DNA of 64,000 bases from a virus (IMGVR_UViG_3300031825_000007:1060-65059), one strand, 5' to 3'. Shown: positions 2,363 to 31,442, counted from the first letter of the stretch. A program made the numbers and translations. The notes: a model not told the origin generated them from the letters alone.

Positions 2363-2403
2363 AGCCTAGTGGTCGGGCAACGACAGGAAATGCGAGGTTT
2401 TCC
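2363..2403 (-). promoter_or_regulatory. Putative late promoter (baseplate operon)
   Basis: GGAAAAC(2403-2397)-N28-TAGGCT(2368-2363), ATG 7 nt downstream, no SD. Confidence 0.7.
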
Positions 2404-2628
2404 GGGTTGAAGTGGACGACAGCGGCTCGCTTTGGTAAATTTCAGGTGTCAGCCGCGCCCACGGGCCGCCTCTCCAGTAGAGTCCCGTGCGTAGCCCCGT
2501 CAGCAATGGAGGGTGTCACCGGCGACCACAGAAGGGGCAACATCATGGGGACGACGCGGCGTAGACCCCATGAGCGTAGGCTGGAATGCGCCTGAAGCCG
2601 CATCCAGCGCACCCCCTTCCCCCCTCTA

Positions 2629-3084
2629 CTACCGGGCGAATACGGTCAGCGTCCAGGCATTCCCACCTGTCAGCTTCACCAGATGCACCTCGGTGCCATC
2701 CTGGCCCACGATCACCCGCGTGGCTCGGCCGATTTCATGACGATCAAGCTCCCTTCCTTCGGCGATGGCGTACACCATGCGCCGCAGTAGCGCCGCCGTT
2801 TGGTGATGGTCATAGCCATCCTTCCGCCGGCGCGACTCCAGCGCATGGGCCAGGCCCTTTGCCCCGCGGCGCACGCCTCTGCTGTTTGGCGGAGCCCCCT
2901 CATCACCCCACACGAAATCCACCCAGCCCAGGCCCTCCCGGTACATGGCGCGGTGCACTGTGGTCTTTCCCTTCATGGCTTTGTCGAGCGCAGCCAGGCC
3001 GCGCTGGACATTTGCCTTGCCGGTGGGTACTGCGTCCAGTATCACCGGGCACAGGATGGCCCGGTACTCATGCAACGCCAGCAT
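2629..3084 (-). CDS. Stand-alone PBECR-type (barnase/colicin E5-like) nuclease, 151 aa
   Basis: GLGWVDFVWGDEG...GAKGLAHALE matches the D(L/F)VWG...GLAH signature of phage polyvalent-protein BECR RNase domains; ATG at 3084 follows the tape measure stop. Confidence 0.6.
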   Translation of the reverse strand: MLALHEYRAILCPVILDAVPTGKANVQRGLAALDKAMKGKTTVHRAMYREGLGWVDFVWGDEGAPPNSRGVRRGAKGLAHALESRRRKDGYDHHQTAALLRRMVYAIAEGRELDRHEIGRATRVIVGQDGTEVHLVKLTGGNAWTLTVFAR

Positions 3085-3088
3085 CGCG

Positions 3089-5587
3089 CTACGCCCCCAG
3101 TCCGCCGGTGACGATATGCGCCATGCCACGCTCGCGCAGATCCTGGCCCACGTCCGATGGCGGCGAGGCGATCACTGTCGGCTTGCTGTTGTTCGAGGCC
3201 AGCGGCACATCGATCCTGGGCGCCTCGGCCACGGCCGGCACCGACGGGCCGGCCGGCATCGCCGGCATTCGCGCGGACGCCACGACGGGTATGGCCGGAC
3301 TAGCGATGCCGGCGGGAACAGGCGGCGGCTTGGGGTCGTCGGCCGCAGCAATGTCGGCAAACCTCTCCCGCGACTGCGACTGCCGAGCGTCCGCTGCAAA
3401 AACATCACCGCGCCGCATCATCTGCCCCATGCGCGAGTAGGCATCGGCAGTCGTGACATTGCCGTCGCCATACAGGCTCTTGTTGCCGGAAATGACAGCC
3501 TCGACACGGGCTCGCTGCTTGTCCGTCTTCGCCCCCTGCAACAGCGCCTCGCGCACCGTCATAGCGGGGTTCTGCTGCATTCCGGTCAGCAGGTTCTTGG
3601 CGTCCTTGTCGCCAAGATTGTGGAAGGCATAGACGTTTGCGTCATCGTCGGCACCGCCATACTTGCGGCCCTTTTCGATGTTCTCCTTCGTGAACTCGGC
3701 CAACATGCTGGCCTGGAGGGTCTTGTCCCCCCGATACTTCTCGGCTTGCTCTTTGGTCAGGGCTCCGGCGCCCTCAACCCCGTACTTCGCCCCGAATTTG
3801 TTGAGCATGTCCGTCCAAGTTCCATTGAGGAACTGGCCGTAGCCGTGGGCCGAAGAAATACGAGTGCCGTCCTTCCTGGTCGGCGTCGCATCAGCATTGA
3901 ATCCGCTCTCGAAGTTGGCGATTTTTGCGACCGTGCCGGCATCTACGCCCGCCTTGTCGGAAGCGCCCAGCAGATACTGCTTGGCGTCATTCCAGCGGTC
4001 CCCGATCTTTCCACCAATGGCCTTCGCCCCTTCCCAGGCCCTGGATGCCCCCCTTCCGACAGTCGATCCCTTGACAGCATCGACAGCCCGCGCGCCCAAC
4101 TCGACGGCACCGGCCTTGATGTCCACGCCGGCCTTGTCCTTGATGAACTGGTTCGCATCGTTCGCCTTGCCGGCTACCCACTGCCCTGCGTCACCGACTG
4201 CATCCTTGAGGCCCTTCCAGCCTTCTGCCAGCTTTCCTAGCGCGCTGTCCCAAGCCTTCTTTATGGTGTCGGTGGTCGCATTCCACGCCGCGGTAATCTT
4301 GCCGGGGATGTCGGCCTCGCGCAGATCGGACACCCAGCCACCGACGGTATCGCCGATGATCTTGCCTGCCTGGTCGCCGAAGAACATCCCGGCCGCGCCA
4401 CCCACAACACCGCCGATGGCAGCGCCAATCGGGCCAGCGAATGCTCCGGCCAGCGCCCCCAGCTTCGCGCCGGCCAGCATCCCCCCAACGCTTCCGGCGA
4501 GACCGCCGACGGCCGCCCCATCGCGCTTGTCCTTCTCGCGGCGCGTCAGCGAGCCGTCCGTTTCGGTATCGTAGATGTCGGACGCGGCACCGACGCCGCT
4601 CAAGAGCGCGCCGATCAGTGGCAGGCGGCCCAGCGCGCCCTTGCCCAGCCCAAGCAGGCCACGACCAGCCCCGGCAAGCAGGCCACCACCGCGCGCCAGC
4701 AGGCTACCGGCACCCGCCGTCAACATGCCGACACCGGGAATACGCTTCAGCAAAGCCCCCAACATGCCGAGCAGACCCGAGCCGCCGCCCTCGCCTTCCG
4801 CGGCGGGCTTTTCCTCGATGACCTTCAGGCTCTTGTTCGCGGCCTTGTTGAACGTGCTTTCCTCCCGACGGAAGCCCGTGAGGGAAGTCCAGATACGCCG
4901 CAACCAGCTCTCCTGTTGCTTCTGCTTGTCGCCGCCCGTCAGCAACTCGTAGCCGCGCGCCATCGGCTGGGCGACCTCGCGGAACGCCTTGATAGCTGGG
5001 TCGGCCTCTTCCATGCCGGCGCTGGATTCCCTGACGGCGCCGACGAGCCGTTCGGTCAGCGCGTGCATTGAGCTTTCACGCTCGCTGCGCTCATCGCTCC
5101 CACCACCCATGCCGGGCGGTGTACGCCCAGAATTCGCCGGGCGTCGGGCATCCAGGGTACGCACGAAACGACCACGAATGTCGCGGGTCTGCGGCCTAGC
5201 CGGCGCCTGTTGCATTGCCGTTCGTGTAGCGCGCAGTTCGGATACCACGCGCGCGGAGGGGGGATCACTGGCCTGGCCGCGCGTCGTGGAATTTCCGCCG
5301 GCACCGCCGGTCCGCGGAGTCGCGGCCGGCCGCAGCAAGGCGGGAACCTGGGCCTGCCGGCGCGCCGCTACGCCCGCGCCAGAATTGGCCGGGCGCCGGG
5401 CACTTGTGGCGTCTGGTGATGGTTTCGATGTCAACCGTTCCGTCCGCGTCAAGACAGCGGCAATACCCGCCACGCCGGTCCGAATCGCACGCACATCCTC
5501 GCGGATTGCTGCCAGGGTCTTGTCGCGGGCTATCTCTGCTGGGGCGCCAACCAGAAAGCCTTGTGCATCATGCTGGAGCACAGCCAT
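3089..5587 (-). CDS. Tape measure protein with lytic transglycosylase domain (P1 Sit-like), 832 aa
   Basis: Gly/Ala-rich hydrophobic repeats plus SLT motifs IANFESGFNADA and SSAHGYGQFLNGTW. Confidence 0.85.
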   Translation of the reverse strand: MAVLQHDAQGFLVGAPAEIARDKTLAAIREDVRAIRTGVAGIAAVLTRTERLTSKPSPDATSARRPANSGAGVAARRQAQVPALLRPAATPRTGGAGGNSTTRGQASDPPSARVVSELRATRTAMQQAPARPQTRDIRGRFVRTLDARRPANSGRTPPGMGGGSDERSERESSMHALTERLVGAVRESSAGMEEADPAIKAFREVAQPMARGYELLTGGDKQKQQESWLRRIWTSLTGFRREESTFNKAANKSLKVIEEKPAAEGEGGGSGLLGMLGALLKRIPGVGMLTAGAGSLLARGGGLLAGAGRGLLGLGKGALGRLPLIGALLSGVGAASDIYDTETDGSLTRREKDKRDGAAVGGLAGSVGGMLAGAKLGALAGAFAGPIGAAIGGVVGGAAGMFFGDQAGKIIGDTVGGWVSDLREADIPGKITAAWNATTDTIKKAWDSALGKLAEGWKGLKDAVGDAGQWVAGKANDANQFIKDKAGVDIKAGAVELGARAVDAVKGSTVGRGASRAWEGAKAIGGKIGDRWNDAKQYLLGASDKAGVDAGTVAKIANFESGFNADATPTRKDGTRISSAHGYGQFLNGTWTDMLNKFGAKYGVEGAGALTKEQAEKYRGDKTLQASMLAEFTKENIEKGRKYGGADDDANVYAFHNLGDKDAKNLLTGMQQNPAMTVREALLQGAKTDKQRARVEAVISGNKSLYGDGNVTTADAYSRMGQMMRRGDVFAADARQSQSRERFADIAAADDPKPPPVPAGIASPAIPVVASARMPAMPAGPSVPAVAEAPRIDVPLASNNSKPTVIASPPSDVGQDLRERGMAHIVTGGLGA

Positions 5588-6492: not shown

Positions 6493-6493
6493 G

Positions 6494-8053
6494 CTACACC
6501 TCCCCGTCGCCGCCCATGCCATCGTTGCGCGGTTTCGCGTCCACGATGGTGGCGTAAAGCTTGGCCTGATCCTCGTCCAGCATCATCGTCTTCGACAGGA
6601 ACTCGACCATGATTTCCTTGGTAGCGCCCATTTCCTTGAGCGTCTGCATGGCCTGGGCCAGCATCATGCCGGCATTCATCCCGTCGGAACGGGTACGCTG
6701 CTTCTCGGCCTCCAGCGCCGAAATCGACCCGAACAGGCTGATGTCCCAGGGACGCTCGGACGCATTGAACACCATGCCGTAGCGGCGCATGGTGTGGATG
6801 TCGGCAATGTGGTTGAAGCATTCGCAAACCGCCACGCGGATGATCCGCGCGCGCTCGGCGGCCTGTGCCGAGGTGCGGAAGAAGCCGCCTTCGCCCAAGC
6901 CACCCGAGAGCTGATCGGCGAAGCCGATCATGGACAGGTCAACGCCAATGGAGCCGGACAGAAGCCGGGCGTGCAGCAACACGTCCTCGATGCTGATGCT
7001 GCCGGCGCGGCCAGACTGGCCGCCGTTCGCCGGCCCCACCGTGGTCAACTGCTTTTCATTGAACACGGGGATGATGTGTCGGATGCGCTCCATGATCGGG
7101 CGTCCGCTCTCCACGGCCCGCTCGGCATAGTTCTTCGACGCCTTGAGCATTTTCGTCACCGATTCCACAAACCGCTTCTGCTGCTCCAGCGTCATGGATT
7201 CAAGGTTGACGGCCACCATCTGCTCATCGATGGAATCCATCCACCGCTGGCCCACCAGGCCCAGCAGTGAGGCAGTCAGGTTGTCGTAGGCTTCCTCGGC
7301 GTTGTAGAGCAGCGAGCCGCCTGCCATGCTGGGCATGATCGGCAAGGCATCCACGTTGTCCTCGGTCAGCGCCAGCCGCAGCGCCTTCTCGACCACGCCG
7401 TACTGCGGAACCCATTGGGTGCGCGGCATCTTCAGGCGCGCCATTTGCGACACGTCCAGACGCTCGAAATTGCGCTCGCCGGTGTAGACGGCGAAGCCGA
7501 TCGTGCGGCTCCCGCGCTCGTAGGGCTGCACCAACGGAGGCCGCACCATTTCATCGACGTACAGGTCGATCACCCCGCGCGAATTCGAGTAGATCCGCGA
7601 GTAAGCGTCGCCGAAGCTCGCGCCGGTGTATGCGAGCTGGTGCGCCACCCGATTGAAGAGCGGCGTCAGGTTGTCCGCCACTTCGTCGGCGATGGCCGCC
7701 AGGCTCTTGTTCTTCTTCGCGGCTGCCGACTGCTCGACGAATACCAAGTCGCCGCTGGTTTCGTGGCCGCCCAGGGCCGAAGTCACCAGTAGGCCCAGCG
7801 CCGTGGACACGATGGGACTGCCCTCCATCAGCGACCACTTCTCGTAGATGACCTGTCGCGCGCGCGCGCCGCGGCTACCCGAGCCCAGCAGCGCCGCCAC
7901 CGTGGTGGTGCCGGCGCCGTACATGAACGTGTCAGACTGGTTGATCTGCTGCGCCGGCGCGGTAAACGAGGACGCCCAGCGGCGTGCAGTCACCCCCAGC
8001 CGCGCCAGCGCGCCCGGAGCCTTCACAACGGGAGTATTCGAGATAGAAGCCAT
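6494..8053 (-). CDS. Portal protein (P1 Prt/T4 gp20-like), 519 aa
   Basis: IYEKWSLMEGSPIVSTALGLLVTSALG, FGDAYSRIY, size and context. Confidence 0.75.
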   Translation of the reverse strand: MASISNTPVVKAPGALARLGVTARRWASSFTAPAQQINQSDTFMYGAGTTTVAALLGSGSRGARARQVIYEKWSLMEGSPIVSTALGLLVTSALGGHETSGDLVFVEQSAAAKKNKSLAAIADEVADNLTPLFNRVAHQLAYTGASFGDAYSRIYSNSRGVIDLYVDEMVRPPLVQPYERGSRTIGFAVYTGERNFERLDVSQMARLKMPRTQWVPQYGVVEKALRLALTEDNVDALPIMPSMAGGSLLYNAEEAYDNLTASLLGLVGQRWMDSIDEQMVAVNLESMTLEQQKRFVESVTKMLKASKNYAERAVESGRPIMERIRHIIPVFNEKQLTTVGPANGGQSGRAGSISIEDVLLHARLLSGSIGVDLSMIGFADQLSGGLGEGGFFRTSAQAAERARIIRVAVCECFNHIADIHTMRRYGMVFNASERPWDISLFGSISALEAEKQRTRSDGMNAGMMLAQAMQTLKEMGATKEIMVEFLSKTMMLDEDQAKLYATIVDAKPRNDGMGGDGEV

Positions 8054-8059
8054 GAAACG

Positions 8060-8100
8060 ATGGTATGTCGCCCTGAAATGCCCGATCTGGCCGGTTTTCC
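8060..8100 (-). promoter_or_regulatory. Putative late promoter (portal operon)
   Basis: GGAAAAC(8100-8094)-N28-TACCAT(8065-8060), ATG 6 nt downstream, no SD. Confidence 0.72.
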
Positions 8101-8114
8101 CGTGCCCCTAACTG

Positions 8115-10877
8115 CTACACCAGAGCAGGTTCGCCCTTTACCTCCCCGGCCTCGCCGAAAATCGCATCCAGAAGCACAGGATTGCGGGCCGCCTTCTCGA
8201 ACACTTGCCCCTCGCGGATCGCGTCGAACAGCCGGTCGAACGCTGCGTTGATGCGCGCGCGCTCATCGCCCTCCGGGTATGGCTTCCATTCGATCCCCAG
8301 CAGCGGATCGACGTGATGCTTGTTGTCGGCGTAGACGCTCAGGTAGTCGTTGCGGCGATCCGCGCCGGCGAGCTTGTCTTCCAGCCACGACTGAAAGCCA
8401 CGGGCAGCCATTTCATCGGGGCTCGACCAGTATTTGCCATAGCTCCCGTCATCGAGGAACGCCGCTTCCTTGGCAAAACGGGACACCGCCCGGCCGGTCT
8501 TCAGGAGCGCCGACGTATCGCCGGCCTGGGCGTAGAACGCGGCCGCGAGCTTGCGCCAGCCCTTGCGGTTCTTCAGGCTGCGCGGGTCGCTTCGACCGCC
8601 GAAGTAGGTATCGACGGCCAGCACCGCCGCTTCGGCGCCGCCGGCGTCCTTGATGGCACGCGCCAGGTCATTACGCGGGTAGTCGATGTTGGCGTGAGCC
8701 ACCCGGATGTCCTGATCGGTGAAGTCGATGCTCTCGGTCAGGCGGTTGTCGCCCGACAGCATGGCCACGCGCAGCCCGACCACCGCGTCGCGGATCGGGC
8801 CGGCCGGCAACAGGTCGGGGTTGAGCGTCACGAAGTCGCCCTTGCCGCCGGCAGCCTCCTGGTTGACCAGCTCGTGCAGGATGTTGTCGATGGCATGGAA
8901 CACCTCGTGCCCCAGGCACCCGCCGCCGCCCATTTTCGTCAGGTTGACGACACGGTGGACGGGCTCGTAGTGCGCCCGCGCCGCGTTCTTGCCGCCCGTG
9001 CCGCGCGCGCCGAAGGCCATGCCGAGCCGGCCGCCGAGGCCGAGCGCGGACACCTCGATACCGAGCATGTCGGCCAGGTCTGACATCGCGCCCGCGGTCT
9101 GCTCCACATGGAACTTGGCGCTGTTCGGGTCTTTCAGCACCCAGTTGCCGGACTGCACGTCGCGCAGGCCCAGCATGTCCTTCAGGGCTTGGGTCGAGTT
9201 CACCGCCACCGGCGCGCCACCGCGCCGCTCGAACTGGTCAGCCACACGAAGCTGGAAGTTGACCTCCTGCTTGGTAGCCTCCCGCGGCGCCACTGACCGC
9301 TCCTTGTCGGCCCACGACCAGTCCTTGATCTTCCCAACCTTGGCGTTGGTGACGTGCCCAGCGAAGGAATCCGAGCCCCGGAAATTCCAGTAATGGACGA
9401 GCCTAAAGAAGCGTTCGCCGAAGGTGAGCCAGGATCGCGTGGTCTGATTTTCGACCAGGTTGCGCGCCCGCGCCGCCTTCATGAGCGCATCTCGCTCGCG
9501 GCTCATGTCGGTGATCTGCTTGCGCAGCGACTCGATCTTCGGGTTCACGTCCGCACGCATCGCGCCGAATTGCGACCAGAGTTCGTCGGTCTGTGCCTTG
9601 GCCTCGTCCACCGCGCGCTGCTGGTCGTCGCTGACCGCCCAGCCGCGCCGCTTGCGCTGCTCCACGACCCGTTCGGCAGCATACATGGCGCTGCGCGCCT
9701 CCTGGGCCTCCTGGTAGATGTCGTTGCTGGAACCGTCCAGCGCTCGCACCTGGGTGGACATTTCCTGCATCTGCTCGGTCAGCAGCTCGTACTGCTCGGA
9801 CTCGTCGGGCCGCAGGGTCGTGCCGTTCAGCTCGTCGCGGATTTCCCCCACGACATCCAGCACCTCGGCCGCGGTCTTGACCAATTGCAGGCGGTCGCGG
9901 ATCGATTCCAGCCCGACGGCGTAGTCCCGGCGAGCGCCCGGGCTATCCTCAGCCGGCGCCGGCGCGATGCTGGCATAAATCTTGTCGATCAAGAAGCCGG
10001 CCGCCGGCTCCATGCCAGCGTCTTGCAGCGCCTGCCAATCGGTCTTGCCGAACAGGTTGGCCTTGACCACCATTTCCTTCGCCTGACGCGGGTTCTGCTC
10101 GATGGCGTCGAAGTCAATGTCGCTGGCGCGCAGGCGCTGGCCGGTCCTGCGCGCGCTGAAGATCAGGTTGGCCGCTTTCTCCTTGCGGCTGTCGGCGATG
10201 TACCCGGTGTCGCGGTAGCGGTAGTTCGAGCTGTTCGGGTCGTCCGACAGGCCGTCATCGGCCGCCGACTCGTCCTGCGCGCCGGGCGCGTTCTCGGCAT
10301 CCGCCTGCGCGGCGGCGGCCGCAGCGCCCAGCTCGACGCGGAGCTGGTTCGCGCGGGCCACGAGTTTCAGCCGCGCCAGCGCGGCGGCCGGGCCGTCGCC
10401 GGCACTCTTCAATCCCGCCTTGATCCGCGCCAACTCGCCCACCAGCTTCAAGCGAGCCAGCAAACCATCCTCGCCCACGGCCGCATCGAAGGCCACGCGC
10501 GCGGGCTCGAATTTCAGGCGCGGCGCGACTTCCTCGGTGACGGAATCCAGCGCCTGGCCTGCGGCGTCGTTCGGCGTCACCAGCTCGGACGGAATGTCGT
10601 CGATCACGGCGTAGAGGTTCACGCCCTCCCGCGGTTGCGGCGCAATCGCCACGGCCACCGAATAGAGCACCTTGGCGGCGGTGAACTTCACGCCCACCAC
10701 GATGCCCCCGACGTACAGCGCAGCGTCATCGACGCCGCCGAGCACGATCCACACACGGCCGGCCAGCGCGTTCACGCTGGGGAGCAGCGAGGCGGACTTG
10801 CTGTCCACTGTGGCCTGATCGACCACCTTGAAGCCCAGCCACGAGATGGGCAGGTCGGCCTGCTGAAGAGCATCCAT
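8115..10877 (-). CDS. Large polyvalent protein with zincin-like HExxH motif and LPD1 domain, 920 aa
   Basis: LGMAFGARG...AHYEP...NLTK...GCLGHEVFHAIDN and YWSSPDEMAARGFQSW...PYPEGDERARINAAFDRLF; AAGGAGG SD. Confidence 0.8.
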   Translation of the reverse strand: MDALQQADLPISWLGFKVVDQATVDSKSASLLPSVNALAGRVWIVLGGVDDAALYVGGIVVGVKFTAAKVLYSVAVAIAPQPREGVNLYAVIDDIPSELVTPNDAAGQALDSVTEEVAPRLKFEPARVAFDAAVGEDGLLARLKLVGELARIKAGLKSAGDGPAAALARLKLVARANQLRVELGAAAAAAQADAENAPGAQDESAADDGLSDDPNSSNYRYRDTGYIADSRKEKAANLIFSARRTGQRLRASDIDFDAIEQNPRQAKEMVVKANLFGKTDWQALQDAGMEPAAGFLIDKIYASIAPAPAEDSPGARRDYAVGLESIRDRLQLVKTAAEVLDVVGEIRDELNGTTLRPDESEQYELLTEQMQEMSTQVRALDGSSNDIYQEAQEARSAMYAAERVVEQRKRRGWAVSDDQQRAVDEAKAQTDELWSQFGAMRADVNPKIESLRKQITDMSRERDALMKAARARNLVENQTTRSWLTFGERFFRLVHYWNFRGSDSFAGHVTNAKVGKIKDWSWADKERSVAPREATKQEVNFQLRVADQFERRGGAPVAVNSTQALKDMLGLRDVQSGNWVLKDPNSAKFHVEQTAGAMSDLADMLGIEVSALGLGGRLGMAFGARGTGGKNAARAHYEPVHRVVNLTKMGGGGCLGHEVFHAIDNILHELVNQEAAGGKGDFVTLNPDLLPAGPIRDAVVGLRVAMLSGDNRLTESIDFTDQDIRVAHANIDYPRNDLARAIKDAGGAEAAVLAVDTYFGGRSDPRSLKNRKGWRKLAAAFYAQAGDTSALLKTGRAVSRFAKEAAFLDDGSYGKYWSSPDEMAARGFQSWLEDKLAGADRRNDYLSVYADNKHHVDPLLGIEWKPYPEGDERARINAAFDRLFDAIREGQVFEKAARNPVLLDAIFGEAGEVKGEPALV

Positions 10878-10887
10878 CGCGGCCTCC

Positions 10888-13800
10888 TTACGCCAGCGCC
10901 GACGTGGCGGCCAGCATCGCGCTCTGGTACGCGGCGACGGCCTGCTCGAACAGCGTCACCAGCTCCGCGTCGCCCTGGTTGCGGTCGTAGGCCGCCGCCA
11001 GCGAATCGGCCAGGTCGGGCGCCAGGATGTCCGGCACCGTGCCGTCGATCACGGAATGGAACAGGGCTCGGTCGGCATCCTTCTGCGGATCGGACGCAGG
11101 CGCTGCGGCCGGCGGCACCTGAACGTCGTCAGCTCCCCGACTGACGGCCTCCGTGTTCACCAGAGCGATGGCCGAGGCAGCATCGGGCATCGTCCCCAGC
11201 TCGGTCGCGGCGCCCGTGATGCCGCCGCTGAAGCCCACGGTCAGGCGCACGATGAAGCCCGAGTCCGTCACCCGGATGTTGAACTGGAGCTTCTTGTCCC
11301 CGGCTTGCACCGCGCGCACGTAGTCGTTGTTCAACACGCGGCGGAAGCCCGCCGCGATCAGCTCGGGCACGTCCGGCTCGGTGGTGGCCTCCGGGCCCGC
11401 ACCATCGGCCGGCACCTCCGGCTCCGTTGCGGGCGCAGCGACCAGGGCCAGCAGCACATCGACCAGGCGCGCAGCGCCATCGCCGGACGGCTGGCCTTCC
11501 TGCGGCTCGACGCTCGTGGCGCCGGCGGCCCCAACATAGACCGTGGCACTGCCCGCATCGTCGATATTGATGCGGCCGGCCGTGTCGCCGTCCTTGACCA
11601 CCTTGCCCACGTAGCCGCCGGCATCCACCGCGTCCAAGACCGCATCGTCCAGCGCCTTCCCGCCCGAATCGGTCAGGTAAAACGCAGACCCGTGCCCGCC
11701 ATTGGATTCGATCCTGTACCGGCCGGAACTGAGGCCCAGGCTCTCGATCTGCCGCAGCTTGTGCGCAATAGCCGGGTCGCTGGTATCGACGTTGAACCAC
11801 TTGTTGCTGCCGTGCTTGGTTGCGAGGCCGCTCAGGTCGATACCAATCTGGTGCTTGATGAAATCAATGACTGCGGACTGCTTCTTCGTCAACGCACTCC
11901 CCGCCGCATCCAGGGTGATGGAGTCGAGCGCCACCGTTTCCGCCTCGAACGTTCCGCCGATGTCCTCTTCGTCCGGCACGTAGTCGGCTTCCGTCAACGT
12001 GGTAATCGCCTCGCGGATACTGTCGGCAGTGTCGGCCTCCAGTTGCGCCTGGGCGTCGTTGCCGGCCGCGCGATTGATCGGCGCGCTCGTCTCGACCACC
12101 TCCAGGGACTGCTCCAAGGCAGCGACAGCCGGGCCGACATCATCCAGCGCCTGGCCGGCGAAGATGCCCCACTGCACGCCAGCGCCGCCGCGCTTGGCCG
12201 CCTCGTCCATCGCTCGGGCCGTCACGAACGGGGAGTTCTCGGTGCGGCCCACGCTGCCCGCCAGCCACGCCTTGAACTCGTCCGTGGCGCTGTCGAACTG
12301 GTAGGCGGCATCGACGAGCGCCGCCTTGCCGGACACCTCGGCGTCCTCGCCTTCGGCCGGGCTGGCCGCCGCCTCCACTGCGCCCACCGCTTCGAGCGCA
12401 GCGCGCAGTCCGCCAAAGGCCAGCGCCGCCTTCAGGAAACCCGTGAAGGTGCGATTGTTCACGAACACCAGGTCGCTGCCTTTCTTCAGGCCGTAGACCG
12501 TGGCCGCGCCGCGCTTGAAGGTGCCCACGTCCGAGTAGCCGTCGGCCACCTGACCAAGCAGATACTGCTGGCCGTCCGACACCGAACCCGTGCTGTCGTT
12601 GCGCACGTTCATGCGTTTGAGCATGTCCCAGGCATCCTTGACCTTGCGCGCGCGCTCGCTGGCCTGCCAGGCTGCGTCCTTGCCGGCCTCGATTTCGGCA
12701 CGCTGCTCGGGCGTGATGCCGGCCCAGTCATCGATCTGCTTGGTGCGCTCCCGCTGGGTCTTCGCCAGCTTCACGCCCGTGGCGCGCTCGAACACCTCCA
12801 TGCTGGCCTTGTTGCTGTCGCTGCCGACGCCGGCGAGCACGCTGCGCAGGGTTTCCGCGTCCTTGGCGTCGATGGCGCCGGCGATCCGCTCCAGCCAGTC
12901 GCTGCGCGCGGCCATGTCGATACCATGCTTGCGGTAGACGGCCAGCGCCACGTCGGACAGCGGCGCATCAGCAGGCAGCGCCGCCAGCGCGGCCGCGCCA
13001 GCCTCTTTCAGGCGCTCCTTGCCGGCGGCCTGGATGTCATTGATGGCCGCCTGATAGGCGTCAAGAGCACGGTTCCAGTCGGCAAAGCCTGCCGTCTCGC
13101 TCAAGCCGGCCAGGCGCTCGTCCCAGGTGTTGAGCCCAGCCGCCTCCAGGGCGGAAGATGCCTTGCCGATGATGTCGTGCTGCGCCGCGCGCGCCGCGTC
13201 GCGCAGCTTCGTGATTTCGGCGTTGGCGCTGGCCGTGTCCGTGACGGCATCCTTGCTCGCTGCCGTCACGGCCGCATTGAGCACGACCGCAGCGTCACCG
13301 AACGACCCCACATAAGCGTCGATCAGAGCCTGCTGGCCGGCTGCGCGCGCATCCGCCTCGACAGCCGCCTGCGCGCGGCGCGCGGCCTCGGCCACCGCCT
13401 GGCCGTCCACCTCGGCCGCGTACTGCTCCGGCGTCTTGGTGAGGTCGTCGGGGATTTCATTCATCGCCCAGCCCACGACGTTCTTGCCCGCGCCGGCGTA
13501 GGTAAAGGTCGGCTGCGCCTCCATGTCGCCCTTGTAGAGTCGGGCGTCGGCCGGGTCGCGGCCTTCCCAGCCGAGCGCGCGCAGTGCGTTGCGCACCGCG
13601 ACAATGCGCTCTTGGAAGAAGGCATCGAGGCGGTCTTGCCAAGCGTCTTGCACACCCGGATCAGCCACGACCTTGGCGTAGTTCTCGGGCGTCGTCGGGT
13701 CGAAGTCGTCGGCCGCCGGCGCCGGGTCGGCCGTGGTGCTGGGCAACTCGAACTTGCCCTCGAACGGCTTGAACTTGCCCGTGGCCTGGTGCAGCACCTT

Positions 13801-15778: not shown

Positions 15779-15819
15779 ATGGTATGCCCCGCATGTACGG
15801 GCAATCGCGGGGGTTTTCC
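15779..15819 (-). promoter_or_regulatory. Putative late promoter (darA-LPD1 operon)
   Basis: GGAAAAC(15819-15813)-N28-TACCAT(15784-15779), ATG 7 nt downstream, no SD. Confidence 0.72.
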
Positions 15820-17847: not shown

Positions 17848-18231
17848 CTACACGGTTACGATGGGCTGGAAGAATGCCTTGTGCGGCATGTCCGCCTCGG
17901 CCTGCGAGATTTCGGCAGCGATTTCGCTGGCCGAGCGGCCGAACGGATCGATACCCATCCCGCGCGATGCCTCCAGTTGCAGGGCCGTCTCGCGCTCGAC
18001 GTAGAGCATGAAAAGCGGGCGGATCAGCGCCCATTCGGAATCGTCGAGGTCGATGTCCTCGTCGATGTTTGGCACCGGGTCGGGAACCTCGCGCGAACGG
18101 ATCGAGGCGAAGCCGGCATAGAACCGGGTCGCCGCGACCAGTTGCGCCACGACAGTTTCTTCGTCGAGCAGGTTGCCGGCCGGCCGCTCTTTCGTGGCGA
18201 ACCGTTCCGCCAGGTCGGCCAGCGTCGTCAT
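17848..18231 (-). CDS. Virion morphogenesis protein (possible head-tail adaptor), 127 aa
   Basis: Coupled ORF in tail operon; function not assignable. Confidence 0.5.
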   Translation of the reverse strand: MTTLADLAERFATKERPAGNLLDEETVVAQLVAATRFYAGFASIRSREVPDPVPNIDEDIDLDDSEWALIRPLFMLYVERETALQLEASRGMGIDPFGRSASEIAAEISQAEADMPHKAFFQPIVTV

Positions 18232-18731
18232 TAGCGGTAGTCGCCCGAGTTGCCGGGGGTCACGTCGCCGAAGTAGTGGAAGAACAGCGTGCCCGAGAAG
18301 GTCAGCACCTGCGAGCGGTTTTCCCAGTCGCGGTCGGGGTTGTCCATCTGGATGAAGCAGTCCACGATGCGCTTGGCGCGCAGGTACTTCTGCGGCGTGC
18401 CCTCGTACACCTTGGCATTGAACGTGCCGCCTTGCGAGATGAGGTCGATCAGCATGTTGTCGATGGTGCCGGCGACCGTCTCAAGCAGGGAGATTTGCCC
18501 CTGCTGTGCGACCTTGATCTGCTGCGGCTGCCACATCGTGGCGCCGAGCGGCGTAGGAACTTCGACCTCGCCGGTCGGCGAGATTTCGGGCCACGGGCAT
18601 TGCTTCGCCAGCAGCCAGTTGGACTCGAAGCCCTCAATCTCGAAGGCGAAGTCCGAGGAAATGACCTTGGCGCCCAGCGCGCGGGTCGTGTCGTAGTGCC
18701 CCTTCAAAAGGGCGGCGGTGGAGACAGTCAT
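18231..18731 (-). CDS. Tail tube protein (P1 BplB-like), 166 aa
   Basis: ATG 18731 with AAGGA SD; FEIEG...LAKQCPWP...EVEVP...GQISLLET pattern typical of tube folds; own late promoter. Confidence 0.65.
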   Translation of the reverse strand: MTVSTAALLKGHYDTTRALGAKVISSDFAFEIEGFESNWLLAKQCPWPEISPTGEVEVPTPLGATMWQPQQIKVAQQGQISLLETVAGTIDNMLIDLISQGGTFNAKVYEGTPQKYLRAKRIVDCFIQMDNPDRDWENRSQVLTFSGTLFFHYFGDVTPGNSGDYR

Positions 18732-18767: not shown

Positions 18768-18808
18768 ACTGTATGACACGACCCGCGCGCGGCGCGGCGC
18801 GGTTTTCC
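18768..18808 (-). promoter_or_regulatory. Putative late promoter (tube operon)
   Basis: GGAAAAC(18808-18802)-N28-TACAGT(18773-18768). Confidence 0.7.
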
Positions 18809-19088: not shown

Positions 19089-19502
19089 CTATTTCCCCCT
19101 CTCGGCTTTCAGTTCAAGGTCAAAGGCATCGCGCGCCGCTACACATTCGTCGGCGCCGGCGGGCGGTTTGGACAGCAAGATGGCGGCAGCTTTCGCCTGA
19201 TAACCCTTCGAGTCGGCCCGCGCCTTGGCGATAGCCACCTGGGCCTGCTGCTCGCGCTCCAGCGCAGCGGCCACGGTCTTCTGCACGGCGTCGTTCTGCT
19301 GCTTGGTCGTGGCGGCCAGGTCTTCGTAGGACTTCTTGAAGCCGTTGGCGCGGTCGTTGGCCTTGTCCGTCGCGTCCTGCGCGGTCTTCACCTGCTGCTT
19401 CAACGCGGCAATCTCCGGGCCGTAGATGACGGCGGTGGCCTTGTAGCCAACCAGCCCCGACAGGACAGCGACGGCCACCAGTTTCCAGAGCAGCGAGTCC
19501 AT
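19089..19502 (-). CDS. i-spanin (Rz-like), 137 aa
   Basis: N-terminal TM, coiled coil and C-terminal Cys; follows the endolysin. Confidence 0.75.
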   Translation of the reverse strand: MDSLLWKLVAVAVLSGLVGYKATAVIYGPEIAALKQQVKTAQDATDKANDRANGFKKSYEDLAATTKQQNDAVQKTVAAALEREQQAQVAIAKARADSKGYQAKAAAILLSKPPAGADECVAARDAFDLELKAERGK

Positions 19503-19503
19503 G

Positions 19504-20424
19504 TCAGTTCTCCCCGAACCAGGCGGCGTAGCGCCCGCGGCGAAGATCCATGACGTTGCGGACGTACTCGCGGTTGATGTCGAAGAACGACTTGCCGTAT
19601 CCGGCGGTCTTGGTCTTCGCCTTGAGGCTGGTCTTTTCGACGTTGCCGAACCAGAGTGCCGGATTGCAGCCCTTCACCTGAGCGCACAGGCGACGGTCGG
19701 ACAGTACGCCGCCCAAGCCGCCGTTGTAGGCGCTGAAGGCCATCGCCAGCCGTTCACGACTGTCGGGCACCATCGCGGCCAGGTAGCGGTACGACGCCCG
19801 ATCCATCAGCACCATCGTGCGCAGTTGGCGCGCGGCGTCGAAGCGATCCGCGTACTTCCAGTCGGCCAGGCTCGGATCGAGCTTGCGCGCCGCCGCGAAG
19901 TTGTCGAACGACGGCGTGACGGTGAGCTGCCCAAGGCCGAACCCGTACTCGCGCGAGGTCTTCAACTCGGTGCGAGGGTTCCAGCACTTCGTCGAAGTCA
20001 GGCTCGGGCACGTCTCCTGCTCGACCTGCGCGGCCATCGCGGAGCGTAGCGGCGCATCGGGCCAGTGGGCTTGCTGCTCGGCGGCCAACACCGGCAGGTA
20101 CTGTACGGCGCCCGCCGGCAGTTCGCCGGCGCCGGCGCGGCCGACGAAGGCCAAGAACAGCAGACCCGTCAGGATCGCCAGTCCGAGAAACGAGAGCCCC
20201 GCGCCGATGGGGTGCTCCAGCGAGCGGCGAAACGCATCGCGCGAGCGAGAGCCGTCGAGCAGCGCGCGCCGCAGCAGGTAGACCGGCCCAGCGATCACGA
20301 AAATCCACGCGGCCCACTGCACACGGGCCAACGTCTCGACGCCGCCGTCCGGGTCGGTGACGTAGTACCAGGCCAGCACTGCGATGGCGCCCACCCACAT
20401 GGTCCAGAGTCGATGTCCACGCAT
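19504..20424 (-). CDS. Endolysin: SLT transglycosylase with multi-TM N-terminal domain, 306 aa
   Basis: Three hydrophobic segments, then AAQVEQET...CWNP...GFGLGQ...SAYNGGLG; ATG 20424 overlaps the holin stop. Confidence 0.8.
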   Translation of the reverse strand: MRGHRLWTMWVGAIAVLAWYYVTDPDGGVETLARVQWAAWIFVIAGPVYLLRRALLDGSRSRDAFRRSLEHPIGAGLSFLGLAILTGLLFLAFVGRAGAGELPAGAVQYLPVLAAEQQAHWPDAPLRSAMAAQVEQETCPSLTSTKCWNPRTELKTSREYGFGLGQLTVTPSFDNFAAARKLDPSLADWKYADRFDAARQLRTMVLMDRASYRYLAAMVPDSRERLAMAFSAYNGGLGGVLSDRRLCAQVKGCNPALWFGNVEKTSLKAKTKTAGYGKSFFDINREYVRNVMDLRRGRYAAWFGEN

Positions 20425-20693
20425 CACGCACCCCCGCTCGTCTGTTCCAGCCCCAGGCGATCTTTCAGCGCCGCCATACGCGCATGGCTTTCGGTCGTCT
20501 CGCGCCGGTCGCGCCGGCGCAGGAAGTAGACATTCACCGCAAGGCTGGCTACCGCGATCAGGATGCCAGCCCAGCCGATCCAGTTTACGGAAAGAAGCCA
20601 CCCCAACACGCCGGTGGCGGCTCCCGCGGTGGTCGTCTTGCTGGAGACCGCAATCGCAGCGGCTTCCGTCGTTACTTTTCCCAGCTCGCTCAT
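20424..20693 (-). CDS. Holin, 89 aa
   Basis: Two hydrophobic segments and basic C-tail (FLRRRDRRE); GAGG SD; first lysis gene. Confidence 0.7.
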   Translation of the reverse strand: MSELGKVTTEAAAIAVSSKTTTAGAATGVLGWLLSVNWIGWAGILIAVASLAVNVYFLRRRDRRETTESHARMAALKDRLGLEQTSGGA

Positions 20694-20914
20694 CGAGTCC
20701 TCGCTGTCATCTTGGCGACGATCCCGCATGCGCGGATCACGTCATTGAGGCGGCTGACAATGGCCGCTTGCGTTTTCAGTTCCGACTCCCTGGCCTTCTT
20801 CCATTCTTCGAAGGCTTTGCCGTCGAAGAAGCGCCGAACGACGCTGGGCTGCATTTGCATGGCGTCGGCCAGGGATGTTGAGGAATATAGGGTGAGGCTA
20901 GATGCCATCCCCAT
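20690..20914 (-). CDS. Small tail/baseplate assembly protein (gp51/T-like), about 74 aa
   Basis: Overlaps the end of the upstream ORF; ATGA-coupled to holin; start uncertain (20914 or 20908). Confidence 0.45.
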   Translation of the reverse strand: MGMASSLTLYSSTSLADAMQMQPSVVRRFFDGKAFEEWKKARESELKTQAAIVSRLNDVIRACGIVAKMTARTR

Positions 20915-20924
20915 GAGGTTTTCC
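20884..20924 (-). promoter_or_regulatory. Putative late promoter inside coding sequence, upstream of the lysis cassette
   Basis: GGAAAAC(20924-20918)-N28-TATATT(20889-20884). Confidence 0.6.
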
Positions 20925-21668
20925 GACCAGTTCGCGCGCCACTCGGGAGAGACAGGTAGAAACCGGAAATCGCGCCGGCGGCAGATCGCCCGCCGCCCCT
21001 CCTTTCGGCAATGCCACGATGCCGTCGCTGGTGAAATCCGTTTTGAAGAGGTGGTGCAGCTTGTCCCGCCCCAAGAAGAACAGCTCCATGAGTGCCGCGA
21101 AGTCGCTCTCCGGGAACGCGGCCATGATCTGCATCCGCGCCACCAGGAATTCATCGAACGAGCCTTCGCCATCCGAAGCGTCGGGCACGCTCTCGCCGGC
21201 GCGCACCATCTGCGCCGCCATCGCACCCAGCAGCCAGTGCAGCCGGCCGGCGACGCCCGGCACCTCGCCGGCCATGCGTTCGATGGACTCGGCCATTGCG
21301 CCGGTCAGGTGCCGGACGTGCCAGATGTCGCCGCCCAACTCGCCTACCTCCAGCGTGGGCGCCGAAGTCTGGATGTCGGTGCTGCCGTCCAGATAGTCCG
21401 AATAGTGACCGTCGCCCAGAGAGAAGTCCGGGCCGTCGTTGGCCGTGGCCGCGAGGTAGTGACACACGGCCAGCATTCGCTCCTGCACCGTCCAGCGCGC
21501 CGGATTGTCGATTCCCTGGGCCGACGCGACAGCGCGACGCAGGAACTCAGTGCAGGCGGACTCTTCGAGGTGCGGCGGCATGGCCGCGAGGGCGATGGCA
21601 TCGCCGATGGTCAGCTCACGCAGTTGCGCCGTCAATCGGCGCGTGCGCAGCGGGGGGAAATGGATCAT
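20898..21668 (-). CDS. Baseplate hub/tail assembly chaperone-like protein, 256 aa
   Basis: Clean ORF in the tail operon; function by position. Confidence 0.5.
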   Translation of the reverse strand: MIHFPPLRTRRLTAQLRELTIGDAIALAAMPPHLEESACTEFLRRAVASAQGIDNPARWTVQERMLAVCHYLAATANDGPDFSLGDGHYSDYLDGSTDIQTSAPTLEVGELGGDIWHVRHLTGAMAESIERMAGEVPGVAGRLHWLLGAMAAQMVRAGESVPDASDGEGSFDEFLVARMQIMAAFPESDFAALMELFFLGRDKLHHLFKTDFTSDGIVALPKGGAAGDLPPARFPVSTCLSRVARELVGKPHGDGI

Positions 21669-23247: not shown

Positions 23248-23276
23248 GTCAATTTCCTTGTAGTGAAGGGTTGCGG

Positions 23277-24941: not shown

Positions 24942-24956
24942 GGCCTGATTCCTTCC

Positions 24957-25532: not shown

Positions 25533-25556
25533 GCTGGGCTCCTTGCCTGCCTGCGA

Positions 25557-27239
25557 TTAGCGCAGATCGGTGACGTTGATGACGGCGCAACCCAGCGAGG
25601 ACGGGCCGTGCGGGTTGACCGCCGTGAAATTGCGAGCGTAGAAACCCGCACCTTCGCGCAGGTCATCGCCGGCCAGCAGGGGCTTGACGGTCGGGGGAAC
25701 GGCGTCGCCCAGCACGATGGGGTTGCGCGCCACGTCGGTCGCGCGGCCGACGGCCAGCACGTTGCCGCTGTTGGGGGTTTCGGCGACTTCCTTCGGGGTG
25801 TAGTAGACCTCGTACTGGCCGAACAGGCGGCCCAGGCGGAAGATGCCGGGGCGCGCGGTCAGGCCGGACGGCTCGAACAGCCCGTACTGGGTCAGGCCCA
25901 GCCACTGCGAGGCAATGTCCTTGCCCACGTACAGGTGCGTGATGCCGTGGTTCATCGTGTCCACCGCCATCTGCTGCGAGGCTGCGCCCAGCGTGGGCGC
26001 GAAGTCCTGCCAGATTTGCGCACGGTTCATCTGCTGCGAGCGGTTCGTCCAGTCGAACTCGTAGGTGGACTGGTTGTTCGCGCCCAGGCGACGGCACTTC
26101 GCCAGCACGTTGTAGTGGCGCTCGTTCGCAAACTGGTTCTGGATGGCGATGACGCTCTCGCTATACGGATCGAGGTTCAGTTCGTTCGCCATCTGGGTGC
26201 GTCCGTCGATGCTCTGACGGGTGATGACGCGCCACGGCGCTGCGTACAGCGGGAAGGTGTTGACCGACGTGATGACGGTCGGCGTCACGCTCGAATCGCG
26301 CTCGAAGTCGATGAAGCCCTCGACCGACACGGGAATGGCCGCGGGCATCTTCGGCGCGGTGGTCAGCGCAAACACGCCGGTGTCGGTGTTGATCGTGCCG
26401 CCGATCACGTAGGTAGTGCCAGCGATGGTGATGCCGCCGTTGATCGGCGAGTTGCCCGAGCCGGGGCTGTTGATCGGCTCCTGGGCTGCGACGACGCCAT
26501 TGACGTAGACCAGCGTGCGGCCGCGCAGCAGCTTCACGCCGTTGGCGTCCTGGTCGCAGGTGTCGCTGGTGACTTGGCCCACGGTCAGTTTGCCGCTCAC
26601 GGTACCGTCAGCGGCGAGCGGGTTGGCGGTGTGGACACGGCCCGAGGACACATAGGTGCCGCCCGAATGCGTGCCGTCCAGCAGGTCGTTCTGGGCGTAG
26701 GCGCCGAACGTGCTGCCCGCGTTGTGGCTCACGATGGCGAGCTTCGCTTCGTTCGAGCCGATGTCCGCCGGCAGGTAGTGTGCGAACGGGATAGCCTCGG
26801 CGAAGGTCGTGAGGATCGACACCACGGCGCGGTTCGGCTGGATGGAGCCCTGGTCGTGGTGGACGGACGAGGCCGAATCGAGGATGCCGCGGAACTTGTT
26901 GCGCGCGGCGTCGGTCGTGGCGTAGGCCAGATGCAGGGCCTGCTCGGCCACGTCGGCCGGCACGCTCATGCCGTGCTGCTCTTCGTAGATGCGCACGCCA
27001 TCCAGGATCGCCTTGGTGACGCTTTCGCGTTCGCCGTCGTCCTTGCACTCGTCCAGCACGGCCTGGAGCGTCACCGGGATCTTGGCAGCGCTCTGATTGA
27101 GCGCGCCGGACATGAATTCGTTGGCGGCGACCGAATCGAAGACGCCGCCCTTGGTGGCGCCCCCCTTCAGGTCGTCGATGAACTGGGCTACTTCGGCAGT
27201 CTCGCGCTTGAAGTAATCCTGTTGGATGCGCTTGGTCAT
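25557..27239 (-). CDS. Major capsid protein (P1 gp23-like), 560 aa
   Basis: Size, AAGGA SD, own late promoter, AIPFAHYLPAD and RQSIDGRTQMANELNLD; probable propeptide ending ILD121. Confidence 0.8.
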   Translation of the reverse strand: MTKRIQQDYFKRETAEVAQFIDDLKGGATKGGVFDSVAANEFMSGALNQSAAKIPVTLQAVLDECKDDGERESVTKAILDGVRIYEEQHGMSVPADVAEQALHLAYATTDAARNKFRGILDSASSVHHDQGSIQPNRAVVSILTTFAEAIPFAHYLPADIGSNEAKLAIVSHNAGSTFGAYAQNDLLDGTHSGGTYVSSGRVHTANPLAADGTVSGKLTVGQVTSDTCDQDANGVKLLRGRTLVYVNGVVAAQEPINSPGSGNSPINGGITIAGTTYVIGGTINTDTGVFALTTAPKMPAAIPVSVEGFIDFERDSSVTPTVITSVNTFPLYAAPWRVITRQSIDGRTQMANELNLDPYSESVIAIQNQFANERHYNVLAKCRRLGANNQSTYEFDWTNRSQQMNRAQIWQDFAPTLGAASQQMAVDTMNHGITHLYVGKDIASQWLGLTQYGLFEPSGLTARPGIFRLGRLFGQYEVYYTPKEVAETPNSGNVLAVGRATDVARNPIVLGDAVPPTVKPLLAGDDLREGAGFYARNFTAVNPHGPSSLGCAVINVTDLR

Positions 27240-27301
27240 GGTTTCGTGTCCTTTCGGAGAAGTTCAAACACTGGAACGCCGGCAGCAGCCGACTTCCGGC
27301 T

Positions 27302-27342
27302 ATTCTCGAAGGGGCACAACTAGACCACGGGGGCGTTTTTCC
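27302..27342 (-). promoter_or_regulatory. Putative late promoter (capsid operon)
   Basis: GGAAAAA(27342-27336)-N28-GAGAAT(27307-27302). Confidence 0.6.
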
Positions 27343-27350
27343 GCTTTTTG

Positions 27351-27854: not shown

Positions 27855-27857
27855 CTG

Positions 27858-28925: not shown

Positions 28926-28928
28926 GCT

Positions 28929-29267: not shown

Positions 29268-29278
29268 GGCGCTCCCCC

Positions 29279-30552: not shown

Positions 30553-30561
30553 GGCGGCGGG

Positions 30562-31383
30562 CTACCGGGTGAACTTGTTGAGCAGGCGGCCATACAGCGG
30601 CGGCTCGCTGGCCTGATCGTCTGCCTTCGGCTTCACGAACCCCGGCAGCGAGCTGGCGCCGCGGAACGCCTGGGCATCGCGCTGGATGCGGTCGGCCATA
30701 TCCACCGACACCGCCATCGGCGCGATGGCGGCCGAGTCGAGCACGAGCGCGGCATCCACGCCCTTGGCTGCCAGCAGGCCCAGCAGATGCTCGTTCTCAG
30801 CGCGCAGGTGCTCGATCACATCGCTGGCGCGGTCGCGCTCGTCGTTCGCCGAATCCAGCAGGCGCAGCACGCCGCGCAACTGCTCGTCGTAGATAGCCGC
30901 CTCGATGTCGTCGAGGGTCATGCCGTTCACGTCGTCCAGGGTGTAGCCCCGGTTCGTCGAGTAGTTCGGCTCCAACACGTAGTCGAAGCCGAAGAACTCC
31001 GGGCGCATCGGGTCGATGGCCGAGCTGAAGCCGCCCACGCGACCGGCGTACAGCTTGGCGGCCACCTGGCCGGGGTCGTTGTTCACGAACTCGGCCTGAT
31101 GCTCGATGGTGCCGTCTGGGCTGGCGCGCAGCAGCGTCGTCACCAGGGCAGGCTCGACCAGCGCCGGGCGCCCGCCGTCTAGGCCACCCTCCACGGGCCT
31201 CATTCCGAATTTTAGGCGGGGCCAATGGCCGTAGTAGCCCACCATGTCGCGGTTTGCCACGCGCTCCTGGCAGGCCGGCCCGTTGATCGCATCGACGATG
31301 GCACGGATGTTGAAATTCCGCTCCTTGCCGCGATACCGGCGCCCGCGCTCCTTCAGGTTGTAGGTGATGACCTTGGTTTCCAT
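30562..31383 (-). CDS. Prohead protease/scaffold (P1 Pro-like), 273 aa
   Basis: ATG 31383 with AAGGAGG; GYYGHWPR, IEHQAEF, GGFSSAI (His/Ser protease-type motifs); acidic coiled-coil C-terminus. Confidence 0.65.
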   Translation of the reverse strand: METKVITYNLKERGRRYRGKERNFNIRAIVDAINGPACQERVANRDMVGYYGHWPRLKFGMRPVEGGLDGGRPALVEPALVTTLLRASPDGTIEHQAEFVNNDPGQVAAKLYAGRVGGFSSAIDPMRPEFFGFDYVLEPNYSTNRGYTLDDVNGMTLDDIEAAIYDEQLRGVLRLLDSANDERDRASDVIEHLRAENEHLLGLLAAKGVDAALVLDSAAIAPMAVSVDMADRIQRDAQAFRGASSLPGFVKPKADDQASEPPLYGRLLNKFTR

Positions 31384-31401
31384 AGGAACCTCCTTGCCGG
31401 G

Positions 31402-31442
31402 ATGGTAGGCAGGCGAAGGCGGGCATCTGCGCGCGATTTTCC
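31402..31442 (-). promoter_or_regulatory. Putative late promoter (protease operon)
   Basis: GGAAAAT(31442-31436)-N28-TACCAT(31407-31402). Confidence 0.68.

Follow-up and report, generated by a model that had tools for sequence, protein, structure and literature searches.

A GGAAAA box 28 nucleotides upstream of a -10-like hexamer marks putative activator-dependent late promoters in phages with a P1-type late module

Late control in model phages and in the contig studied here

The switch to late transcription is known mechanistically for few model phages, through lambda Q, P1 Lpa, P2 Ogr, Mu C and T4 gp55/33. Here we describe seven elements of, or close to, the form GGAAAAH-N28-TANNNT, in which a GGAAAA box is separated by 28 nucleotides (nt) from a -10-like hexamer, on the minus strand of a 64,000-nt stretch of viral DNA (IMGVR_UViG_3300031825_000007:1060-65059, hereafter the window). 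These are very probably activator-dependent late promoters, and a 205-amino-acid (aa) helix-turn-helix (HTH) protein of the XRE type is the candidate activator. The general logic, many dispersed late promoters that lack a -35 element and answer to one phage activator, is known; what is new is the sequence of the box, its distance to the -10 and the candidate protein family.

The window makes up most of a 69-kb IMG/VR viral contig (record G000) from a soil metagenome, with a GC content of 65.7%. It was compared with Xanthomonas phage Rb1 (locus L001), the one sequenced phage that is close to it (sheath proteins 67% identical), with the related viral records G001–G005, retrieved via the tube protein, and with 41 further loci retrieved via the HTH protein at 44–79% identity. 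In the papers searched, neither Rb1 nor the box motif is described.

The Lpa/SspA system of P1 resembles that of the window in several respects. The virion and packaging genes are homologous (PacB at 32% identity, Hdf/DarA, PmgB, PmgG, sheath and tube), the late promoters are many and dispersed, and each consists of a TANNNT-type -10 and a single box upstream of it, the -35 being absent, and the activator gene, here a candidate, lies directly upstream of the packaging genes. In the P1 record a 9-bp ‘-22 region’ is found 4–9 nt before the -10, and lpa just upstream of pacA and pacB. The box of the window, in contrast, differs in sequence and lies 28 nt upstream, and the candidate activator is unrelated to Lpa. 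A tblastn search with P1 Lpa gave only E > 2 in G000, Rb1 and G001–G005 (PacB: ~1e-61), and the Lpa hidden Markov model phrog_1704, which finds P1 lpa at 3.8e-86, has no match in G000, G002, G003 or Rb1. P1 itself shows no enrichment of GGAAAA-N28, with 7 matches against 6 in the control and no strand bias.

The Mor and C sites of Mu are imperfect dyads. Like those of Mu, the promoters of the window combine a usable -10 with a -35 that is poor or missing, and they too would place several late operons together under a small, phage-encoded, dimeric DNA-binding activator. In Mu, the dimeric activator binds just upstream of the -35 or overlapping it (PMC4461284). The predicted position of the window box (~-47 to -41) is comparable; however, this box is asymmetric, with no dyad partner in 81 sites, the Mor domain (PF08765) is absent from G000, G002, G003 and Rb1, and the virion module is P1-like rather than Mu-like.

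In P2, 186 and P4, one phage-encoded zinc-finger activator (Ogr, B or Delta) likewise serves several late operons that lack a good -35. The element of P2 is an inverted repeat with its centre near -55; in the window phage, nothing is conserved upstream of the box, and the Ogr_Delta domain (PF04606) is absent from the same four records. An earlier reading made from the sequence alone (the sequence-only reading) had set the box apart from that of Lpa in P1 and from the Ogr repeat of P2, and both distinctions hold.

Two further comparisons concern the type of activator. At the PRM promoter of lambda, cI, an XRE-type HTH dimer bound near the -35, activates a promoter with a weak -35, probably via sigma region 4 or alpha, and CRP and FNR act at -41.5 in class II activation. 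The centre of a dimer in the window would fall near -40. In those systems, however, the operators are two-fold symmetric, and cI is mainly a repressor with another C-terminal domain; the C-terminal hairpin of the candidate has no solved analogue, and its regulon would be the whole late gene set. The lambdoid Q proteins act at a single late promoter and terminator, in contrast with the seven or more dispersed promoters here. Phage_antitermQ (PF06530), the one Q family of Pfam that was searched, was not found, and Q-type antitermination was rejected on the number of promoters and the lack of Q.

Location and spacing of the box promoters

The pattern GGAAAAH-N28-TANNNT has six exact matches in the window, all on the minus strand, and a seventh site carries the hexamer GAGAAT. 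These are the seven places proposed by the sequence-only reading, and its account of their gene context also stands: six boxes lie between genes, in front of the baseplate, portal, DarA-like, tube, capsid and protease operons, and the seventh lies in coding DNA, at the end of a PmgB-like gene ahead of the lysis cassette. The putative promoters are as follows.

31402..31442, minus strand: late promoter 1; GGAAAAT, N28, TACCAT; intergenic; leader of ~12 nt with the Shine-Dalgarno (SD) sequence AAGGAGG
27302..27342, minus strand: late promoter 2; GGAAAAA, N28, GAGAAT; heads the major capsid gene (25557-27239); leader of ~55 nt with SD
20884..20924, minus strand: late promoter 3; GGAAAAC, N28, TATATT; heads the lysis cassette
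18768..18808, minus strand: late promoter 4; GGAAAAC, N28, TACAGT; heads the tail tube operon (18231-18731 and downstream); leader of ~30 nt with SD
15779..15819, minus strand: late promoter 5; GGAAAAC, N28, TACCAT; heads the 1627-aa DarA-like gene
8060..8100, minus strand: late promoter 6; GGAAAAC, N28, TACCAT; heads the portal gene (6494-8053)
2363..2403, minus strand: late promoter 7; GGAAAAC, N28, TAGGCT; heads a 96-aa gene (2065-2355) and the baseplate gene (567-2108)

Promoter 1 heads the first late operon, which begins with a 273-aa protein (its Rb1 orthologue is annotated as prohead protease), and has orthologous sites in G002, G003 and L031. The unusual hexamer of promoter 2 is conserved as GAGAAT at the orthologous site of G001, G002 and G003, and across these and L062, L066, L068 and L079 the capsid promoter keeps either GAGAAT or GAAAAT. 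The box of promoter 3 falls within the final 26 nt of the PmgB-like gene (20898-21668), and a near-identical site is present in Rb1, G003 and G005. The box of promoter 5 begins 5 nt past the stop of the Hdf-like gene.

The sequence-only reading also implied that the combination of motif, spacer and hexamer should be rarer in shuffled sequence, and 100 dinucleotide-preserving shuffles of the window gave no match, against six in the real sequence. When the spacing was scanned with the looser hexamer NANNNT, seven of the nine late-strand heptamers of the window had a hexamer at N28; no other spacing between 15 and 41 had more than one, and the opposite strand had none at N28. In Rb1 this was true of 8/11 late-strand heptamers; in the window and Rb1 together, no other spacing exceeded two. 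A blind dyad scan paired each of 4,096 hexamers with an A...T element at each of 36 spacings (147,456 combinations). In the contig (Bonferroni p 8e-6) and in Rb1 (4e-3), GGAAAA at the N28 spacing came first; it was second in G003 and fourth in G002.

Conservation among relatives

Records G001–G005 contain 22 late-strand sites, compared with one in reversed-pattern controls. At orthologous sites (capsid, portal, lysis, DarA-like and 96-aa genes) the box, the spacing and the hexamer are kept, while the sequence of the spacer has diverged. The 41 loci gave 38 + 43 late-strand matches at N28 (81 sites); other spacings mostly gave 5–15 and at most 18, and the opposite strand gave 0 + 5 at N28.

In the lower-GC relatives G004 (L026), L014, L059 and L076 the spacer is 27 nt instead of 28, and a 27-nt spacer is also found at the capsid promoter of Burkholderiales prophages (L031 18620-18665), which points to a spacing tuned by one base per lineage. 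In G002 the promoter of the first late operon and the first ~30 transcribed bases are duplicated, with copies 7 kb apart (G002:C1 27350-27420 and 34271-34341). This genome has ~13 kb of additional DNA between terL and the protease operon; the promoter has therefore been copied together with the insertion.

Character of the two elements

A footprint was drawn from the 81 non-redundant sites, with positions outside the search pattern taken as evidence. Position 5 of the hexamer is A in 67% of the sites (background 21%), with A or C at position 4; the hexamer is better described as NANNNT, with the consensus tAnaAT. The box is flanked by C at -1 (63%), +9 (58%) and +11 (69%), so that it extends to about C-GGAAAA-M-nn-C-n-C. 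The rest of the spacer and the region upstream of the box show no other conservation among these sites, and spacer positions 13–29 carry no information. In the window the spacers are 61–86% GC, and their best match to TTGACA averages 2.1/6, compared with 2.26 for random 28-mers; the earlier description of GC-rich spacers lacking a TTGACA-like -35 is thus confirmed. An extended -10 TG was not found at the sites. A simple sigma70 consensus scan recovers none of the box promoter sites, as expected because the -35 is absent.

The distance from the hexamer to the start codon is informative. An ATG lies at +6 or +7 after the hexamer in 16/81 sites, and at +8 to +10 in none. This register is seen at the same genes (portal, 96-aa and DarA-like) in six phages (G000, G001, G002, G003, G005 and Rb1). 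In the window, the ATG of the DarA-like gene (15771) follows the hexamer of promoter 5 by 7 nt, with an equal offset in G003 and G005; the portal ATG is 6 nt past the hexamer of promoter 6, as in G001, G002 and G003; and the ATG of the 96-aa gene is 7 nt past that of promoter 7, an arrangement shared with G001, G002 and Rb1. Genes with an ATG at +6/+7 have no SD, whereas promoters with leaders of 12–55 nt are followed by a clear SD. The register fits transcripts that would begin at the A of the ATG, 7–8 nt after the -10, and the mRNAs from promoters 5, 6 and 7 are predicted to be leaderless. If the hexamer represents -12 to -7, the box would be positioned at ~-47 to -41, and the ATG register supports this assignment of the hexamer. 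Geometry and register thus agree on the position of about -41 to -47 that had been suggested.

These features bear on whether the elements are promoters at all. They might instead mark the borders of operons as some other oriented signal in DNA or RNA, for processing, termination or packaging, as the boxes mostly lie just past the stop codon of the upstream gene. This is hardly credible: the second element has the traits of a -10 (an invariant A and T, A-rich positions 4–5), start codons that lack an SD stand exactly at the expected +1, and the elements are found on the coding strand only, ahead of operons. Nor are the spacers hairpins. Their mean minimum free energy of folding is -5.86, compared with -5.37 in shuffles (p = 0.13); a hairpin or terminator in the spacer was ruled out, since self-complementarity is no higher than in shuffles.

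The arrangement is of the class II type, with a sigma70-type -10, no -35, and a conserved site that abuts the -35 region at a fixed distance. Sigma32, sigma54, sigma28 and extracytoplasmic function (ECF) promoters were rejected, as their spacing and -10 are unsuited. A diverged sigma-like or sigma-appropriating phage factor, reading a bipartite promoter with a long spacer, would account for the strict spacing between two short asymmetric elements, and GGAAAAC is faintly like the ECF -35 motifs (G-AAC). It is nevertheless highly improbable. Sigma70_r2 (PF04542) is absent from all four phage records (G000, G002, G003 and Rb1), with matches in 10/14 control genomes; a 28-nt spacer is far beyond the 16–18 nt spanned by sigma70-family proteins; the downstream element fits the housekeeping -10; and there is no additional conserved early protein.

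The candidate activator

The gene of the candidate is the last of the early/delayed-early operon and ends 10 nt upstream of terS, a place that corresponds to that of Q in lambda and of lpa in P1.

34441..35058, minus strand: candidate late activator, 205 aa; XRE-type HTH at ~4-82 and a two-helix hairpin at 92-195

In Pfam the protein matches HTH_31 (PF13560; 35.2 bits, cut-off 27) and HTH_3 only. The AlphaFold2 model (predicted local distance difference test score, pLDDT, of 82) consists of a five-helix XRE HTH domain and a long helical hairpin. Foldseek shows the HTH domain to resemble C.AhdI, SinR and P22 c2, with root-mean-square deviations of 1.8–3.0 over ~67 residues; only this domain was matched, and the PDB and the Swiss-Prot models gave no analogue of the whole protein. 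The family has 656 representatives at 50% clustering, which carry generic HTH names only (Atlas).

Position and inheritance suggest that this protein is fairly likely to be the late activator. Among 33 non-structural open reading frames (ORFs) of the window, only TerS and the HTH protein are present in 14/14 comparators. In Rb1, G002 and G003, which were found via the tube protein, the early regions are otherwise replaced, yet the HTH protein is kept at 58–74% identity, directly upstream of terS. The recognition helix, N-x-S-K-L-S/A-K-I/V-E, is almost invariant across homologues, which matches the invariance of the box and was counted in favour of this assignment. The protein probably acts as a dimer: the homodimer model scores 0.53, with 0.01 for the best control, the runs share at least 80% of contacts, and the pLDDT of the partner is at least 76. 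This mark was reached by 20/30 solved pairs and 1/23 solved single chains, counts that are approximate since our own alignment was used.

In Rb1 a box promoter (GGAAAAA-N28-GATAAT, 690-730) lies directly upstream of the HTH gene, and in the Burkholderiales prophages L031, L032 and L034 one lies at 9528-9568, upstream of a resolvase-like gene and the HTH gene. These could provide positive autoregulation. The window has no box promoter ahead of its HTH gene. A match inside the gene, GGAAAAG-N28-GACGAT (34695-34735, minus strand), was rejected as a coding coincidence; it is kept in G003, L062, L078 and L079 because it encodes the segment W/M-E-K...R-D-M.

Transcription of the late operons in a related provirus

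The search for RNA runs of the window itself listed none, and one DNA run matched, a soil metagenome from which the contig probably comes. Eight RNA runs from two studies contain the capsid gene of the provirus G002; the predicted starts were fixed before reads were mapped. Run X15 was available as raw reads. Here an accessory island calibrates the library as sense-stranded, with 5' pile-ups at 11594/5 (plus-strand operon) and 15365 (minus-strand gene) that match the ORFs. Sense depth is 0–4x over most late bins, compared with 36–180x on the island. Three late bins reach ~10–12x, namely 1–667, 10673–11339 and the tube-gene bin directly behind its box promoter; in bin 1–667 the reads begin at 105, upstream of the box. 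In run X12 the prophage is absent (8 reads).

Most late operons of the G002 lysogen are thus near-silent, as activator dependence would predict, so that box plus -10 is not a strong constitutive promoter in the lysogen. The activator-dependent late regulon with a recognition code of its own, as put forward by the sequence-only reading, is supported in silico by the conserved register, the sigma70-like -10 and these operons.

Two further observations come from the same run. The island (L090 11254-15400, corresponding to G002:C1 ~45050-49200; 51–59% GC) lies between the PmgB-like gene and the tube promoter, in the place of the window's lysis cassette. Of its five ORFs, four are on the plus strand, among them one for a QueC-like protein (PADLOC PDLC00911, E 7e-18), and the fifth is on the minus strand. 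With its sharp 5' ends the island is by far the highest-expressed part of the prophage, and perhaps a moron for defence or DNA modification. At L090 ~4700-5210, over the capsid promoter and the 5'-most 350 nt of its gene, the X15 reads are antisense only (11.5x; 22 molecules begin at 5210), so that antisense RNA over the capsid 5' end may be made in the G002 lysogen, as seen in one run.

Proposed mechanism and alternatives

The best overall explanation, which we consider likely, is that sigma70-dependent late promoters are read by a phage HTH protein that activates them. Host sigma70 RNA polymerase would use the seven promoters, which offer a weak -10 (NANNNT) and no -35. The asymmetric box, C-GGAAAA-M(nnCnC), which stands exactly 28 nt further upstream (~-47 to -41), would be bound by the phage protein from the early operon, which would recruit or activate polymerase from the position of a class II activator. 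The protease/head, capsid, lysis, tube, DarA-like, portal and baseplate operons would thereby be switched on together, and three of the seven transcripts would start at or beside the A of the start codon and be leaderless. In the HTH dimer, one HTH would read the box, which is conserved, and its partner would cover the -35 region, which is not. What the data show are the geometry, strand specificity, sigma70-like hexamer, missing -35, start-codon register, lack of the known late-regulator families and co-inheritance of the HTH protein; the start sites, the box-reading protein, its contact with polymerase and the timing are inferred.

Several points weigh against this explanation. The RNA comes from a relative, G002, grown under unknown conditions, and no start was resolved at any box promoter in X15 (among the 6 of 75 begin/end places listed). 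An RNA contig of run X3 starts at L090 position 517, where 518–520 was predicted, but a repeat boundary at 515 confounds this match, and RNA contigs cannot show starts. The assignment of the HTH protein rests on position and co-inheritance, and since its gene and the late module are always linked, co-occurrence cannot separate the two. A closely apposed XRE dimer normally reads a two-fold symmetric operator, whereas the box is asymmetric and the 81-site footprint contains no second half-site. Finally, L088 has an altered recognition helix (NASGLVKIE) and still has a GGAAAA box at its first late operon. This is its single late site, and it offers no support for covariation of helix and box; de novo dyad scans in single distant loci (L076, L081–L084, L059, L014 and L026) were underpowered for such covariation, and the contigs of homologues with divergent recognition helices (P0257, P0263, P0264, P0220 and P0266) are short or lack late genes.

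The last of these points would suit late promoters whose box is read by some other factor, a small phage protein or a host protein, with the HTH protein serving in delayed-early control or in repression of early genes. The link to the HTH protein is positional and phylogenetic, its predicted dimer is unsuited to an asymmetric box, L088 keeps the box despite the altered helix, and Rb1 encodes additional zinc-finger and TraR-like proteins. Such a factor is unlikely, as besides TerS and the HTH protein no further non-structural protein is common to all box-bearing phages, and the additional Rb1 proteins have no homologue in G000, G002 or G003. A host factor would need to be conserved across the hosts of the box-bearing relatives, which span 45–66% GC.

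A further point against an HTH reader is that the A-tract of the box, at ~-45 to -42, lies inside the proximal UP subsite, which Estrem et al. in 1999 are said to have placed at -46 to -38, so that the alpha subunit could read part of the signal. The box might then be mainly a proximal UP-like element for the alpha C-terminal domain, late timing coming from, for example, read-through out of early operons, the copy number of the genome or removal of a repressor; a universal alpha subunit would also suit many hosts. We consider this very unlikely. The alpha C-terminal domain reads the shape of A/T tracts, whereas here both G residues and the flanking C residues are invariant or strongly biased, and one-base precision in spacing is tighter than its flexible tether would lead one to expect. 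The late operons of the lysogen are mostly near-silent although box and -10 are present; the box alone is therefore not strongly constitutive, which argues against a purely UP-like element.

If the HTH protein is indeed the activator, a wider picture can tentatively be drawn. It is possible that a large family (656 clusters at 50% identity), combining an XRE HTH with a helical-hairpin dimerisation domain, uses ‘half-site’ class II activation of the late regulon, with many leaderless mRNAs, in P1-like temperate phages of many Proteobacteria. One subunit would read GGAAAA at -44, and the other, without sequence specificity, would replace the contact of sigma region 4 at the missing -35.

The compact promoter code would extend over a widespread group of temperate myoviruses that have P1-type virions and infect Xanthomonas, Burkholderiales and many as yet uncultured hosts, and the single candidate activator gene makes the hypothesis directly testable. 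It would help to annotate operon starts and true leaderless start codons in hundreds of prophages; the fixed start-codon register would yield a collection of naturally leaderless late mRNAs from phages of Gram-negative bacteria. In evolutionary terms, a P1-type virion and packaging module would have replaced its regulator by an unrelated protein while keeping the logic of dispersed activator-dependent promoters. A tight, orthogonal, phage-inducible pair of promoter and activator is a possible tool for high-GC Proteobacteria.

The late module and its neighbourhood

The P1-type late module runs along the minus strand from ~35,000 down to 1. It comprises a PacB-like terL, TerS, the protease-like first late gene, capsid, sheath, PmgG- and PmgB-like genes, the lysis cassette, tube, an Hdf-like gene, the DarA-like gene, portal and baseplate. 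On that strand it is preceded by a lambda-like early operon with Cro-like and CII-like proteins, methyltransferases, a DnaC-like loader, NinB and a resolvase. Further features of the module are:

33156-34430, minus strand: terS; no box promoter in front in the window phage
31522-33144, minus strand: terL, PacB-like (E 7.5e-61); no box promoter in front
minus strand: lysis cassette; a small ORF, endolysin (19504-20601) and an Rz-like gene (19089-19502)

One more box promoter, the eighth (GGAAAAT-N28-CAGAGT), begins at window position 1 and leaves the window at its left end (G000:C1 ~1020-1060, minus strand). It lies ~110 nt ahead of a 302-aa ORF and probably drives the next late operon, perhaps that of the tail fibre.

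Because terS and terL have no box promoter of their own, they are presumably co-transcribed with the candidate activator gene. In Rb1 a separate 76-aa zinc-finger ORF lies between the HTH gene and terS. TerS of the window phage (424 aa) has a Lys/Ala-rich, low-complexity N-terminal region of ~150 aa, followed by a Terminase_2 domain from residue 150.

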